Shown here piece after piece: positions 4,964 through 47,272 of a DNA stretch of 64,000 bases (within the stretch, counting starts at the first letter, position 1; each line of letters begins with the position of its first letter). Both the position numbers and the translations under genes were made by a program. This DNA comes from Lama guanicoe (Eukaryota), in contig MU056760.1 of NCBI GenBank assembly GCA_013239625.1, positions 2,795,493-2,859,492 on the forward strand, in the 5' to 3' direction. The notes beneath the pieces are model-generated. The model was not told the origin of the DNA, ran no database searches, and saw nothing but the letters and a program-made list of their open reading frames with translations.

Positions 4964-5068
4964 TCATCCTATGCTGTGTCGCTGCTGCGGGAATGTGTGA
5001 AGCTGCGGCCCTCTGACCCCACCGTGCCCCTGATGGCTGCCAAGGTCTGCATAGGGTCCCTGCACTGG
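4964..5068 (+). CDS. TTC7A: TTC7A coding exon 11: [35 protein letters not shown]
   Basis: Acceptor ttctcctgcag|TCA, donor TGG|gtgagt; 105 nt; overlaps ORF 4976..5320. Confidence 0.96.
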
Positions 5069-6198
5069 GTGAGTGAGCTACGGGGTCAGGGGTGGGCAGG
5101 GCCCAGGTCCTGGCAGCCTCCTGTGGCAGGTGGGCATGAGGTGGGGGTGGGCGCATCTTGCCGTGTATGTAAAGGGTGGGGGGAGCTGCGAAGCAGACAG
5201 GCTTGCGGGGGAAGGGGTGGAGAAAGGCTTCTGAGAAAACTCCAGCCGCTGTCCCCTAATGCAGAATGGTGCTGGGTTGTTAAGTTCAGCCTTGAAATGT
5301 CTCCAGGGAGCCAAATGTAGTCAAAAGTCCAGATGCCCCCACCCGCCCAGCTGTGGAAAGTAGGCAGGACCTTGGAGTTACCTGGGTTAGCCCATCTTTC
5401 AGAGTCAAAACTAGCTCTGGGCAGAATGGGAAGGCATCCTCTTCTGTCGGCCTCAGGCCTTGCCTCGGTGCTCTCTCCGCCCCACAGACTACCTCAGCTG
5501 CTGATCCAGGCCTGGGCAGGGTGCGTCTTGAGGCAGGGCCTCTACATGGATGTCTTCTCTCATTGGGAGCTCCCTTGCTGACTTTCCTAGCTTCCTAAGG
5601 TCCACGTCAGCCTCCTGATGTCAGGGGCGGTCCCATTGCCACTCTCTTGAGCAACGTAGAGCATAGAACAGTGCACATCTCTCTCGCCTGTTGGCTGTCA
5701 GCCCACCCACCTCTCCTCTCTTCAGGCTAATAGGCCCAGTTCCTTCATTGGCCCAGGAGTTTCTCCCATATATGGTCCTTCCTACCCTCACTGTCATGGG
5801 CCCAGCTTGTTCCAAGGCAACAGGGGCCCAGGTACATACCGCAGGCACTTTAGAATTAGCCTCTTCCACTCCTCCAGCCCTGGAGATGGAGACTCTAAAT
5901 TCTAACCCTTTCTGCCTGAAGACCCCCTCTCTCCTGAGTCCCTGCCTCCCTGCCAAGTGGGCCTCATCCCCTTTCTGCCGTAGTGCCTCCCTGGCAGGAG
6001 AGTGTGGAAACAGCACCTTCCCCTCTGCTCCCTGGTCCTCAGGTCCCCATGTATGAAGTGCCCTTAGGGCCCTGCCTTGGCTCTTCCGGACTGTGAATGA
6101 TGGAGGAGGGGGAAGCTTGGCTTTTGACCCCAGGCTTTGTGATGTTGTTCTATAAGATTGATTTGCAATAGGCTCTAGGCGTTTAGATGAGGCAGCCT

Positions 6199-7361
6199 GA
6201 TGAGGTGGGTAAGAGTTTCACTGATCCTCATATGTGTCATAAATGACAAAATATGGAAAGAGCTGGACGGCTCAGGGAGGCTTCCAGGAGGAGGCGGCCG
6301 TGGCCCAGGCTCAGAGACCAGCCGGTAGTGGGCCTTTCTGTTGCAGCTTGCTTTCCTCAGCCCCGTGATTAGCAGGCAAACTCCTTGATCCTCAGGTATT
6401 TTTAGGGAGACTGTTGGCATCTTGCGCCGTAGAGGGTAGGGTGCCGTTGGGATGTGTGCAGTGTATGGGTGCTGGCAGAGTAGACACCCAGGCTGAGCAC
6501 GTGCAGCAGCAGGTGGTGGTGTGAGCCAGAGGATACAGGGGGTGGGCTCACTGAGCCCGTAGCTCACACCCCTGCGTGTTCCCAGAGCTCCTGAGAAGGG
6601 CCTTAAACTCATCACTGGGATGAGGCCCAAATACCCAGTGAGGGTGGGACGGGGAGAAGATCTGTGCTCCCAGGAGCTGCCGGCTCTGAGGTGGCTGTGA
6701 GTCCACCCAGCCAATGGCCGCCCCTGCCAGGAAGCCCTAAATTTAGGTCNNNNNNNNNNNNNNNNNNNNNNNNNNNNNNNNNNNNNNNNNNNNNNNNNNN
6801 NNNNNNNNNNNNNNNNNNNNNNNNNNNNNNNNNNNNNNNNNNNNNNNNNNNNNNNNNNNNNNNNNNNNNNNNNNNNNNNNNNNNNNNNNNNNNNNNNNNN
6901 NNNNNNNNNNNNNNNNNNNNNNNNNNNNNNNNNNNNNNNNNNNNNNNNNNNNNGAGTTGTTTAACCTCAGCAAAGAAGCACATTTGGGTTTGGGGGCTGG
7001 TTTGAGCCAGAGTTTAAATCGGGCACAGGCTAGAGCAAGGTCCTGCTGGAGGACTGGGGTGGGTTCCCGGCAGCCTTCACTGCCCTGGAACCTCACCTTC
7101 TGTACCTCCCTAAAGCCCCGTTTATACTTGCCTCGGACACTTGGCACATGGCATTGTATTTCTCATTGCATGTGTTTCTTGAAGATAGGAACTAGCTCTC
7201 CTTCTGGAAACCCCAGCCCAGATAAGGTGGGTTAAGAGTTTCCCTGTTCCTTATATGTGGCACAAATGACAAAGTATGGAAAGGTCTGGACAGCTCAGGG
7301 AGGCTTCCAGGAGAAGGAGGCCTTGGACTGGGCTTGAAGGCCAGCCGGTAGTGGGCCCTTC
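6199..7361 (+). repeat. Diverged direct repeat of ~140 bp (copies at 6199-6338 and 7221-7361) on either side of the gap
   Basis: Shared blocks aggtgggt(t)aagagttt, aaatgacaaa(a/g)tatggaaag, gctcagggaggcttccaggag and ccagccggtagtgggcc. Confidence 0.85.
6750..6953. other. Assembly gap (204 N)
   Basis: Run of N. Confidence 1.
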
Positions 7362-11560: not shown

Positions 11561-12538
11561 TGAGGAGAATGTATATACATGGAGTGCAGTAGGTTTCTGG
11601 ATTCTATTTATAACTCGTATTTGGTGGTTTATTAAAAAAAAGCTCGCATCTGTTTGAATAGGTCATAATGATACTTATAGACAGTTGGAAGACGAGAAGT
11701 GGCAGATTAGGAAGTGGGCAAGGGGCTGTTTGCTCACTTACCCTTCCCTTATTGCCTCCAGTACCCGCTCAGCTATGCAGCCTCCTTGGACAACCCCAGC
11801 CAGGTGTTTGCCCCTCTCTTGGGGCTCCCATAGCCCCAGGCCAGCATCACACAGCAGAGCCTTGATTAAGAGCCCCCTTGCCCTGCGGGGCCTGGCCCTC
11901 CTTAGTGTCGGCTCCCAGGAGTTCCATGCATGCTCATCCAGGCATCTGCCTCCTCCTCACTGGGCCTCCCCAGCCAGGCCAGCATAGAGCCTGGTGCTGC
12001 AGAAGACTCAGTGGAGGTTTGTAGGGAGAAGCGGTTGGAGTAGGGGGGAGGTGAGGACCTCTGGGACACAGTCTGTCAGGCACTGAGCCTGTGTCAGAGG
12101 GCTTGTCCTGTGCTTGCCTTTCAACCTGGCTCTGACTTCAGGGCCCCACAGCTCTCCTGAGTGCTGCTGGCCACATGCTCCAGGAGATGGATCTCAGTGT
12201 CTATAGCCTAAGTCCGCCCAGACAGCGCGACTGGGCAGCGGGCAGCTGTGGGGTTTCCTGAGGTGCTGCCTCCCCCCAGCCCTGAGACCTCAGGCCTGAT
12301 GGTGTTACAGGCCCAACTCCCCAGACTCCTGCATCCTTTCGGTGACCAGTCCACTGATCTGGAGGTGGCCCACTGCCCAGGCTGGCAGCTTGAACTTGAC
12401 CGTGAGGGGGCTGAAAGGCTGACCTTGTCAGGGATGTGGTAGAGCCACAGGGATTCAGCCCCTCTGGCAATCTGTCTCTGGGCTGTTAGCTCACCCGTTC
12501 TGCCTTTCTTGTACTTTGGGTGCTTCTCTTCTTTATAG

Positions 12539-12653
12539 CTGGAGGAGGCAGAGCGCTTTACCATGATGGTCATCCACCTTGGGGATGGAGTTCCTCTCCA
12601 AGGGCACTCTGGCTGGGGTACCAGAACCCAGCATAACTTTTTGGGCCTCTGTG
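12539..12653 (+). pseudogene. Degenerate tandem copy of TTC7A exon 12 (pseudo-exon)
   Basis: ctggaggaggcagagcgctttaccatgatggtcatccaccttgggga versus real exon ctggaggaggcagagcgctttgccatgattgtcatccacctcgggga. Homologous acceptor, ~8-nt deletion, decayed 3' part. Confidence 0.9.
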
Positions 12654-13553
12654 GCCCACACAAGGAGGCCTTGACATTGGGCGGTGGTGGGGCTTTGTGT
12701 GTGAATCATTCAGCCCCTTGCTGAGGGTTGTACCAATCACTGTTCTTAGTGATGCTGCCACACGAGGCATGTGGGCAGATGACACTCCTGGGTTGTGGGG
12801 GTGGCTTCTGGAAGGCCTGTGGGCCAGCTGCCCACCCCCACTCCCCACCTTCCACCAGGCCTGACCACCCTGGGTGCCCCAGGGGGCTTGTGAGGGCTGC
12901 TTTGTGTATCCCCTTTTCATGTCACGTGTTGCATGTGATGTGTGCACATGTGACCTGTGCCAGTTGGCCCCTTTCCAACTGGAACAGTCCCTCCTGCTCC
13001 CAGGACAGAAATAGCCCCAGGCCTTTTTCCCCTGAAAATTTGGAGCTTCCCCCGGGTCAGGGAGGGAGCTCAGAGCCGGAGCCTTAGTAGCAGCCCGCTC
13101 CACTCTGCTCCGCAGGGTTGGCCGTGTCCCCGAGGCCCAGTCCTCAAGCCCTGCCCACCCCCGATCCCGGCTTCCCTCTGTCTGCTGAGCAGGGGAGGGG
13201 CAGACACAGGCACTACCGATGAAAGAGGGAGGAAAGGAGTCGGCACAGACTGGCCTGGCCCCGGGTCCATGCTCTCAGCAGAGCAGCTGTTGGAGAGCCG
13301 AGGTCCCTGGAGTGAGGGCAGCCTTCCCTGTGAGAGGTAGCACCCTGGGACCTTTCGCACAACCCCTCGTTGGGGGGAAAGATCCAGGGAGTTACTGGTA
13401 GAAGAAAGGTAATCCTTGCATTCTGTGGCTGTGTGGCCTTGGACAAGCTGCCCAGCCTCTCTGGTCAGGTGTAAGGAATTGCAGTTCTGAGGGCCCCAGG
13501 CTGGTGACTGGATACCTATCCTCCCCAGTAACCTTTGCCTCTCTTCTCTACAG

Positions 13554-13671
13554 CTGGAGGAGGCAGAGCGCTTTGCCATGATTGTCATCCACCTCGGGGA
13601 GGAGGCCGGGGAGTTCCTCTCCAAAGGCTACCTGGCGCTGGGTCTCACCTACAGCCTGCAGGCCTCCGATG
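13554..13671 (+). CDS. TTC7A: TTC7A coding exon 12: [39 protein letters not shown](A)
   Basis: Acceptor ctcttctctacag|CTG, donor GATG|gtgagt; 118 nt, ends in phase 1. Confidence 0.96.
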
Positions 13672-14809
13672 GTGAGTGCCGAGGCCTGGGAGCCTCTGCT
13701 GGGGCGACTCAGGCCTCCTGATGGCCTCCCAGTGCCCACCCCCCAACACACCTCCATCAGCTTCTCTGAGATACATGTGCACATGCACGTGAACACACAT
13801 ACACACCCCTCAGTCCATCCTCGCTCTTGCTCAGACTTCACCAGCCTCAGACACGCTGCCTTCATGGGCCCAGTTCTTTCTCCCTCCCAGCCCCAGCTCC
13901 TGTCCTGGCCCACGCTGACCTCCGCTCCCGTGGTGCTTGTCGTCTTGAGATGCACCACCAGCCCCGACCCCACAGTGTCTTCCTTCTGGTTCACCTTTAC
14001 CCTCAGCACCACCGTCAGCTTCCCTTTCAGTGCATGGCATAGAGCTGGGTACACAGCAGGCATTTAATTAAATGGTGCATGGGTTCCACTCCTGCTGCCT
14101 GGAGCCTGGCATTCTCTCCCCAACCTCACCAGCTCAGCTGTGTGTCCCCCTAGGGGTCAGCAGCCACCTGCCTCTGAATCTTTCCCTAGCTTGAGGGAAA
14201 GGGAGGGATGGGCCCCCACCCAGACCCAACCCGGAATGCTGATCAGCTCCCACCCACACCTCCCAAATGCCAGCCCCCAGGAGCAGGCTTCAGAGGCCCC
14301 ACACAGTGAGAGGTAACCACAGCTAGCACTTGCACAGGAGGGGAGGGAGGGGTGCCGGGGCCCTGCTCCTTGTTCTCTAGTGACAGTGGTTGCTGTTTCT
14401 TCAGGACATTAGTGAGCCTCTGACAGGGAACCTTGGGGTCTCCACACTCTGGTCAAGTGAGGGGGATCATGAATCCCTTCATCAAAATCCAGTTTGCTCA
14501 GAGCAAGAGACCTGCCCTGTGACTTTAATCCTCTGGGATTAAAGCCATTCTCTACCCCGCCACATATACGTCAGAAGCCAGGACTGCTTTATAAGCTGGG
14601 GACCTCTGACATCTATCCACACCTGGTCCTGCCAGCAGCATTCCGACCTGGTCTGGCTGGAGCCTGGGACGACAGTCATTTTAAAGCTTCCCAGGGAGTT
14701 CAGCACCCGCTAAAGCTTTTAATGCCTTTCCTACTGCATTTAAAGTCAGGTTCAATTTACCAGAAAGGTGCCAGCTTTGGATTAAAGTAAGAAACCTCGT
14801 GGAGAAAGT

Positions 14810-15353: not shown

Positions 15354-15411
15354 CAACTCTGAAATCCAAGCAAGACGAATTGCACCGGAAAGCACTGCAG
15401 ATGCTGGAGAG
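15354..15411 (+). CDS. TTC7A: TTC7A coding exon 13: (A)TLKSKQDELHRKALQMLE(R)
   Basis: Acceptor ctctcctgcag|CA, donor GAG|gtaagg; 58 nt. Confidence 0.96.
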
Positions 15412-32820: not shown

Positions 32821-32937
32821 CCTGATGTTCACCAAAGTGAAGCTGGAGCAGGTACTGAAAGGCCCAGAGGAAGCCCTTGTGACCTGCAGACAGATGCTGC
32901 GGCTGTGGCAGACCCTGTACAGCTTCTCCCAGCTGGG
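32821..32937 (+). CDS. TTC7A: TTC7A coding exon 16: (S)[38 protein letters not shown](G)
   Basis: Acceptor ctccccacag|C, donor TGGG|gtgagt; 117 nt; C-terminal part of ORF 32588..32941. Confidence 0.96.
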
Positions 32938-47108: not shown

Positions 47109-47272
47109 CCTCCTGCATTTCAGACATTAGCTCCTCTGATAAATGCCTCCCGGGAGGTCACATCCAGAAACTTGATTAGGGAGCTGGTGACCTCCTGCAT
47201 TTCAGACATTAGCTCCTCTGATCAATGCCTCCCGGGAGGTCACATCCAGAAACTTGATTAGGGAGCTGGTGA
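47109..47272 (+). repeat. Tandem duplication, 2 x 82 bp, one mismatch
   Basis: Units 47109-47190 and 47191-47272; they differ only at gataaatg versus gatcaatg. Confidence 0.95.

Follow-up and report, generated by a model that had tools for sequence, protein, structure and literature searches.

Intron 11 of the TTC7A gene in the window (the whole 64-kb stretch of DNA that was analysed) carries, about 1 kb before exon 12, a short copy of the end of that intron together with the beginning of the exon. We put at roughly three in four the probability that this copy is a genuine and quite ordinary relic: a short local duplicate of an acceptor and a partial exon, likely repair-mediated and likely decaying neutrally.

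The gene itself is readily recognized. Using tblastn with orthologues, 11 TTC7A exons were placed between 998 and about 56870. Searching with the translation of exon 12 returned 332 hits among 343 candidates; the names among the 120 listed are TTC7A, with a few labelled hypothetical. Exon 12 encodes residues 465-504 of the 858-aa orthologues, and its number agrees with the 'c.1479 delG Ex 12' and 'c.1510+105 Ex12 del' that appear in the excerpted text of PMC11775016. The exons around the copy are these (a slash within a motif marks the splice boundary).

4964..5068, + strand: TTC7A exon 11, 105 nt, donor TGG/GTGAGT, from tblastn with orthologues and splice signals
13554..13671, + strand: functional TTC7A exon 12, 118 nt, donor ATG/GTGAGT, from orthologues and splice signals
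15354..15411, + strand: TTC7A exon 13, 58 nt, from tblastn with orthologues and splice signals

Exons 12 and 13 of the window match the Vicugna pacos record (MIVI and ALQMLER). The Camelus records that span exon 12 read MMVI in 3 of 3, together with ALQTLER, and the human protein also reads MMVI. These residues point to a South American camelid, or something very near one, as the source of the window. At the junction of exons 15 and 16 (32821-32823), the window encodes Ser (ENFS), as Camelus does, where the Vicugna pacos record has Asn (ENFN); this may reflect either a polymorphism or an origin in a South American camelid other than Vicugna pacos.

The similarity of the copy to exon 12 is real and far above chance. 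Positions 12521-12617 align to 13536-13642 with 86 of 97 bases matching, 11 mismatches and gaps of 8 and 2 nt, and blastn gives this pair 100 bits (E 8e-24), where the best score in 30 shuffled 43-kb controls was 29 bits. What was copied amounts to 18 nt of intron followed by exon bases 1-89 of 118; the copy lacks the closing 29 bases of the exon and its donor.

12521..12617, + strand: copied block, made of the last 18 nt of intron 11 and the start of exon 12; 11 substitutions, two deletions (8 nt and 2 nt)
13536..13642, + strand: parent (template) block, 107 nt, source of the copy
12537..12538, + strand: acceptor AG retained in the copy (TAG/CTG; the parent has CAG/CTG)
12585..12586, + strand: point at which 8 nt (parent 13601-13608) were lost with a shift of frame, flanked by short GGA/GGG repeats

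Much of this had been noticed in a first-pass annotation of the same DNA, and on these points its reading stands. It had placed the copied acceptor at 12539, 1015 nt before the acceptor of exon 12 at 13554, and the alignment puts it there. It had read the first 15 codons of the copy as LEEAERFTMMVIHLG, aligned to the start of exon 12; the 21 bases after the copied acceptor are indeed identical to the start of the exon, and the longest exact run between copy and parent is 23 nt. It had described a deletion of some 8 nt that shifts the frame, which corresponds to parent 13601-13608, and the loss of the parent's donor. A second gap in the copy, of 2 nt (parent 13635-13636), was without mention there. 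The 11 substitutions and two gaps are, we infer, too many for a mis-assembled duplicate, and an assembly artefact was rejected on this ground.

The same annotation called the copy a tandem duplicate of the exon and followed weak similarity as far as about 12653. Neither description survives. The 1-kb flanks upstream of the two acceptors align with a score of 30 (shuffle mean 27, maximum 41), and the 1-kb downstream flanks with a score of 37 (mean 27, maximum 38). Extension anchored on the core was compared with random intron at three gap costs, with 150 controls each; the p values were 1.0, 0.47 and 0.32 on the 3' side and 1.0, 1.0 and 0.61 on the 5' side. Thus, a tandem unit of the whole 1015 bp was rejected because flanks of 1 kb do not align above shuffles, and a tandem duplication of the whole exon was set aside as well, with 89 of 118 bases, no donor and no flank homology. 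The window holds a single copy of exon 12 and no copy of any of the other 10 TTC7A exons. In the last intron, at 47109-47272, two head-to-tail copies of an 82-nt segment agree at 81 of 82 positions; this duplication is either a recent event or an assembly echo.

These alignments bear also on a different history for the copy. A whole exon might have been duplicated earlier, its 3' part and flanks then deleted or decayed, and its 5' part refreshed by gene conversion from exon 12, all without function. As such a history would have it, identity drops from 59 of 65 in the 5' block towards a 3' end broken by gaps, and brief matches (GGCCTC, for example) turn up again beyond it. Against this, similarity past 12619, or before 12521, does not exceed that of random intron, and the 1-kb flanks do not align. 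We regard an older duplication of this kind as improbable.

Preferred here is a single short duplication made during repair, a route of origin that is likely and that we infer from the form of the copy. Retrocopying is ruled out by the 18 intron nt that were retained and by the absence of a poly(A) tail at either end; nor does the copy have a spliced structure. The size of the copy, its same-strand orientation, its 1-kb spacing and its retained intron bases fit the repair-mediated short local duplications described in the excerpted text of Pace et al. 2009 (PMC2671141). That text gives 824 proximal duplications in human, with the template within 5 kb, having a mean length of 162, a median of 147 and a maximum of 619 bp. 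The distance to the template has an apparent peak near 1,200 bp, which the authors caution may be an artefact of method. Donors were 'partial exon/intron' in 4 of the 824 human cases, in cow there are 202 proximal duplications, and divergence in this class is as expected under neutrality (PMC2671141).

Set beside these, the copy has 97 aligned nt from a 107-nt template, within the range of 50 to about 620 bp; it lies on the same chromosome at an offset of 1015, which is >50 bp and <5 kb, with flanks that are not duplicated. It resembles the cases of Pace et al. 2009 (PMC2671141), as far as these are described in the excerpted text, in being a short copy near its template, the only one in the window, with unrelated flanks and a partial exon/intron donor, with a divergence compatible with neutral decay and with no poly(A). 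It differs in that their cases lie inside interrupted transposons and were checked against empty orthologous sites. A block of this size would, of course, seldom span an acceptor: in TTC7A the chance is 1-2% per event, so exon-spanning duplicates should be rare per event and yet expected genome-wide.

Under this reading, a broken DNA end in intron 11 would have invaded the nearby acceptor and exon sequence, copied about 107 nt, and then re-annealed, which is synthesis-dependent strand annealing. This would have happened about 40-50 My ago, after the artiodactyl change of Asp to His and before the alpaca-side change of Met to Ile, both of which are taken up below.

Doublets, which are reportedly same-strand pairs at a spacing of about 1 kb, offer a second comparison. 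Like the doublets of Thomas et al. 2004, the copy and its source in exon 12 are short, lie near each other on the same strand without being adjacent, and are separated by about 1 kb. Doublets are defined on identical or nearly identical matches, however, and the copy is old, with 11 mismatches in 97 bases and its longest run at 23 nt. The authors of PMC2671141, in the text excerpted, link repair-mediated duplications to these doublets.

A further same-strand pair lies within intron 11, at 6196-6338 and 7218-7361; its members are 143 nt long, are 84% identical and touch no exon. Its offset of about 1022 is approximate, since an N gap (6750-6953) lies between its members; for the exon copy the offset is 1015/1023. 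Weak similarity between these members extends back to 6142/7170. Part of this pair resembles what is presumably an L2 fragment.

The age of the copy can be approached from two codons and from its divergence. At codon 10 the copy has ATG, as do human, ruminants and Camelus, and the live exon has Ile, as on the alpaca side. Ile occurs there in 2 of 33 distinct orthologue segments, those of alpaca and, independently, of horse. The first-pass annotation had noted that the copy keeps MMVI and had proposed that the change from M to I is lineage-specific and lies in the exon; comparison with orthologues bears this out and confirms, as far as sequences can tell, a recent alpaca-side change in the live exon. 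At codon 13 the copy has CAC (His), as do camelids, ruminants and pigs. Elsewhere the residue is Asp in horse, lynx, dog and mole, Asn or Asp in bats, Ser or Gly in primates, and Gln in whales. The His in the copy suggests that it is likely younger than the artiodactyl His. Read in this way, the change from M to I would date the copy by a late lower bound only, and His13 would give a useful upper bound. The His codon alone cannot separate the older, converted duplication from a younger origin.

The 9-10 copy-side differences in 97 bases correspond to 42-47 My (95% interval 19-86) at a rate of 2.2e-9, a generic rate as quoted in the excerpted text of PMC2671141. The three-base TAC/ACT difference may represent fewer events, so the age could be lower. 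At the same rate the 6196/7218 pair comes to 39 My, an age similar to that of the exon copy. The copy is, from these counts, likely about 40-50 My old.

What has happened to the copy since then shows no sign, in the differences that it carries, of coding constraint. In the parent frame it has Ala8>Thr, Tyr26>Thr, an altered Gly19 codon, two frameshifting gaps and 2 synonymous differences; no excess of silent change in the copy versus exon 12 was found. All 33 distinct orthologue segments share Ala8, Gly19 and Tyr26, which for Tyr26 is partly built into the anchor. The TAC/ACT codon apart, the copy and its parent differ at 8 single bases; at 6 of these the parent's G or C is A or T in the copy, and one of the remaining 2 is the exon-side change from M to I. 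All 3 intronic changes in the copy keep a pyrimidine.

The first-pass annotation had remarked that the acceptor is intact and that the copy begins at the same splice position. Neither is evidence of use: the block simply includes the splice site, and with a divergence of 11-13% the chance that both AG bases persist is 75-87%, so that an intact acceptor alone shows nothing. The acceptor does more than survive, in that it has a TAG with 75% pyrimidine at -23 to -4 (real acceptors have 55-85%) and an AG-free zone of 47 nt. Background YAGs with an equal pyrimidine tract number 141 of 1793, and those equal on both tract and AG-free zone make up 0.3%.

12490..12520, + strand: pyrimidine-rich (74%), AG-free tract of 31 nt, with a CTCAC branch-point-like motif at -46

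This tract is not homologous to the parent's upstream intron, and the branch-point-like GTAAC of exon 12, at -23, lies outside the copied block. Intronic 31-nt windows as pyrimidine-rich and AG-free number 1078 of 41500 (2.6%), a figure to be read with the tract having been chosen after the fact. The tract could reflect pyrimidine microhomology at the insertion site. Judged on these features, the acceptor at 12539 looks usable, which counts most heavily against a relic that is wholly silent. A recursive splice site has AG followed directly by GT; the copy acceptor reads TAG/CT, and this candidate was rejected.

The acceptor might also act without inclusion of the copy, as a decoy that binds U2AF or U2 and alters how fast or how faithfully intron 11 is removed, or the skipping of exon 11. 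Acceptors are known to function as decoys in this way. It would help such a decoy that a realistic acceptor stands 1 kb before the true one, and that exon 11 can be skipped in orthologue records. Primate and pig records of 823 aa do skip exon 11 (4964-5068) in frame, joining ACGK to LEEAE, so that the upstream donor for the copy lies on an exon that is alternatively spliced in other mammals. Yet this skipping occurs in primates and pigs, and is so independent of the copy as far as known, and the 141 of 1793 background YAGs have a pyrimidine tract that is equally good. We consider a decoy very improbable.

An acceptor makes an exon only if a donor follows. Donors were scored by U1 duplex energy, using a generic U1 motif, and by counts of matches to the consensus.

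12618..12623, + strand: donor GGG/GTACCA proposed in the first-pass annotation, agreeing with the consensus at 4 of 9 positions and lacking a +5 G, with a U1 duplex of -5.3 kcal/mol
12687..12692, + strand: best nearby candidate donor GTG/GTGGGG, U1 -7.8, top 3.8% of background, with +5 G
12722..12724, + strand: in-frame TGA (codon 62) on read-through from the copy acceptor

Real donors in the window run from -8.2 to -12.2 kcal/mol and have a +5 G in 10 of 10. By these scores the proposed GGG/GTACCA is background-grade; 17.8% of 2236 background GTs are equal to it or better. It was correctly said to close a stop-free exon of 79 nt in phase 0/1. Among the 18 GTs within 320 nt, however, 5 are both phase-compatible and stop-free, about one in three being expected by chance, so the fit of the 12618 donor to the frame is chance. 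The better candidate, whose energy is inflated by G-U pairs, would close after 12686 a stop-free exon of 148 nt (12539-12686), also in phase 0/1, that had been without mention. At 13406-13414, 870 nt after the copy acceptor and 145 nt before exon 12, stands a fairly good donor-like site, AAG/GTAATC; a candidate exon ending there would contain stops.

What use of the copy would do to the message follows from the frame. The first-pass annotation held that the copy together with exon 12 shifts the frame, and translation agrees: reading would end early in exon 15 (161 nt), at a stop 51 nt from its start. With each of the phase-1 donors tried, further junctions follow this stop, which lies >50 nt upstream of a later junction as in a poison exon. 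Transcripts that stop in exon 15 or at 12722 would be targets of nonsense-mediated decay (NMD) under the standard rule.

A cryptic or poison exon is, therefore, a reading that must be weighed. In it the copy would be exonised from 12539 to 12686 (148 nt) or 12617 (79 nt) and included with exon 12 in measurable amounts, leading to the exon 15 stop and NMD. It draws on a realistic acceptor with a pyrimidine-rich tract upstream and on that stop, 51 nt into exon 15 with junctions downstream. Some unannotated intronic exon copies in human, according to the excerpted text of PMC9013439, have an excess of split reads, and that of PMC10515962 describes unproductive splicing as pervasive. Both candidate donors, however, fall short in strength of every one of the window's 10 real donors, and a frameshift with a downstream stop would come from two of every three random exon lengths, hence carries no signature. 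Measurable inclusion of this kind seems unlikely. Still less likely is that 12539-12686, or 12539-12617, became a regulated and lineage-specific poison exon by which camelids adjust the dose of TTC7A. Were it true, an NMD switch would have arisen in one dated step out of a piece of TTC7A's own exon, the repair duplicate having brought a ready-made acceptor beside a tract that was already there, rich in U, free of AG and containing a branch-point motif.

Under the preferred reading of a decaying repair duplicate, no strong donor lies in exon-definition range, and the copy would accordingly fail to be defined as an exon, exon 11 joining 13554. Rare use of 12539 with exon 12, or read-through, would lead to a premature stop and degradation, and the copy would be spliced at noise level at most.

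It was further said that the copy, taken in place of exon 12, keeps the frame, and translation through exon 15 agrees. This is the basis for a functional mutually exclusive exon, which would give a TTC7A isoform 13 residues shorter in the helical repeat region, with the predicted peptide GDGVPLQGHSGW. By the filter for such exons in the excerpted text of Hatje et al. 2017 (PMC5740500), which asks for lengths within 60 nt in steps of 3, matching phase, no stops and AG-GT ends, the copy passes, having 79 versus 118 nt and thus being 39 nt shorter, a multiple of 3. Here the likeness to mutually exclusive exons lies in a neighbouring homology, the same acceptor phase and a phase-matching, stop-free GT. 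True pairs in that text (PMC5740500) have frame and homology along the exon as well as junction reads, whereas the copy is in frame for 15 of 39 codons.

The protein itself speaks against exclusive use. With the 79-nt replacement, residues 16-39 (24 residues) would be lost for 11 unrelated ones, and 20 of these 24 are invariant in 33 of 33 segments, 6 of the 20 by construction of the anchor. A 14-residue stretch in the lost region is common to TTC7B, for which structures are solved. In addition, Ala8>Thr falls at an invariant residue, the donor is weak, no feature that would enforce exclusivity was seen, and no such protein is among those fetched. The peptide of the copy scores 0.17 of the self score against that of exon 12 (BLOSUM62 global, which is not the WebScipio score), its similarity being limited to the first 15 residues. 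That use of the copy would shorten a TPR, as had been suggested, is plausible; the best-scoring TPR stretches in Pfam begin just after exon 12, from residue 511 onward. A useful alternative protein from the copy appears, on these sequences, very unlikely, and we give a mutually exclusive exon hardly any credence. Of the three options that had been named, then, the fossil is best supported, although it likely began as a short repair-type local duplicate and not as a tandem duplication of the whole exon; the protein makes the mutually exclusive option very unlikely.

Searches of proteins agree with disuse as far as they reach. Five 5-mers specific to the copy occur in 0 of 194 fetched TTC7A proteins. 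Exon 12 has its canonical length in every protein in which both flanking anchors could be located (148 of 148), among them all 4 camelid records that cover the exon; this count was made on 173 long proteins, the 25 without one anchor being left out. Eleven proteins without an anchor were inspected and all have a normal exon 12, the anchor being missed through exon 11 skipping or upstream variants, anchor substitutions, or changes after exon 12. Searching proteins with the reading frame of the copy brought up no relative: there was no candidate at 33-107 aa and there were 6 candidates, none scoring, at 71-2000 aa; a hit to a repetitive protein of 2186 aa was spurious, with no matched stretch. 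These protein negatives are weak, since minor isoforms are hidden in 90% clusters and NMD targets are omitted or rarely annotated.

A metagenome scan gave 319 pattern matches at 2 loci, both distant (73-78% amino-acid identity) and one TTC7B-like, neither of which matches the copy region beyond the exon itself; a scan of viral contigs gave 0 matches. Sequencing runs holding part of 12300-13900 (19 of 24 found) were counted neither for expression, nor for conservation, nor for the presence of the copy. Among these 19, five of unstated type from one organism have shares of 0.85-0.92, and 14 that are RNA or guessed RNA have shares of 0.07-0.43. No earlier report of the TTC7A copy was found in searches of open-licence literature; the two papers found there that name TTC7A together with exon 12 are human and clinical, and TTC7A does not occur in the 20 top-ranked of 3,393 further papers.

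The 21 identical bases after the acceptor matter for any reading of RNA data. Reads with a short overhang past exon 11 could be mis-assigned and so fake a 5068>12539 junction; the first base that tells copy from exon is 12560. The problem of multi-mapping for homologues of exons is also raised in the excerpted text of PMC9013439.

In that text, Ivanov and Pervouchine 2022 (PMC9013439) count 4,027 unannotated intronic homologues of exons in human. The copy resembles these targets in being intronic and repeat-free, with a similarity of 80% or more to an exon annotated in its own gene. It differs in that a subset of theirs has support from reads or conservation, and in that the copy lacks the 3' quarter of the exon and the donor. 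On the preferred reading it matters little: every mammalian genome contains short local duplicates and look-alikes of exons within introns, hundreds to thousands in number, and this is one more. In people, loss of TTC7A leads to intestinal atresia and immunodeficiency, as the excerpted text of PMC11775016 reports. If RNA showed regulated inclusion in these camelids, the copy would be a clean and datable case of a repair duplicate that turned into an NMD switch.
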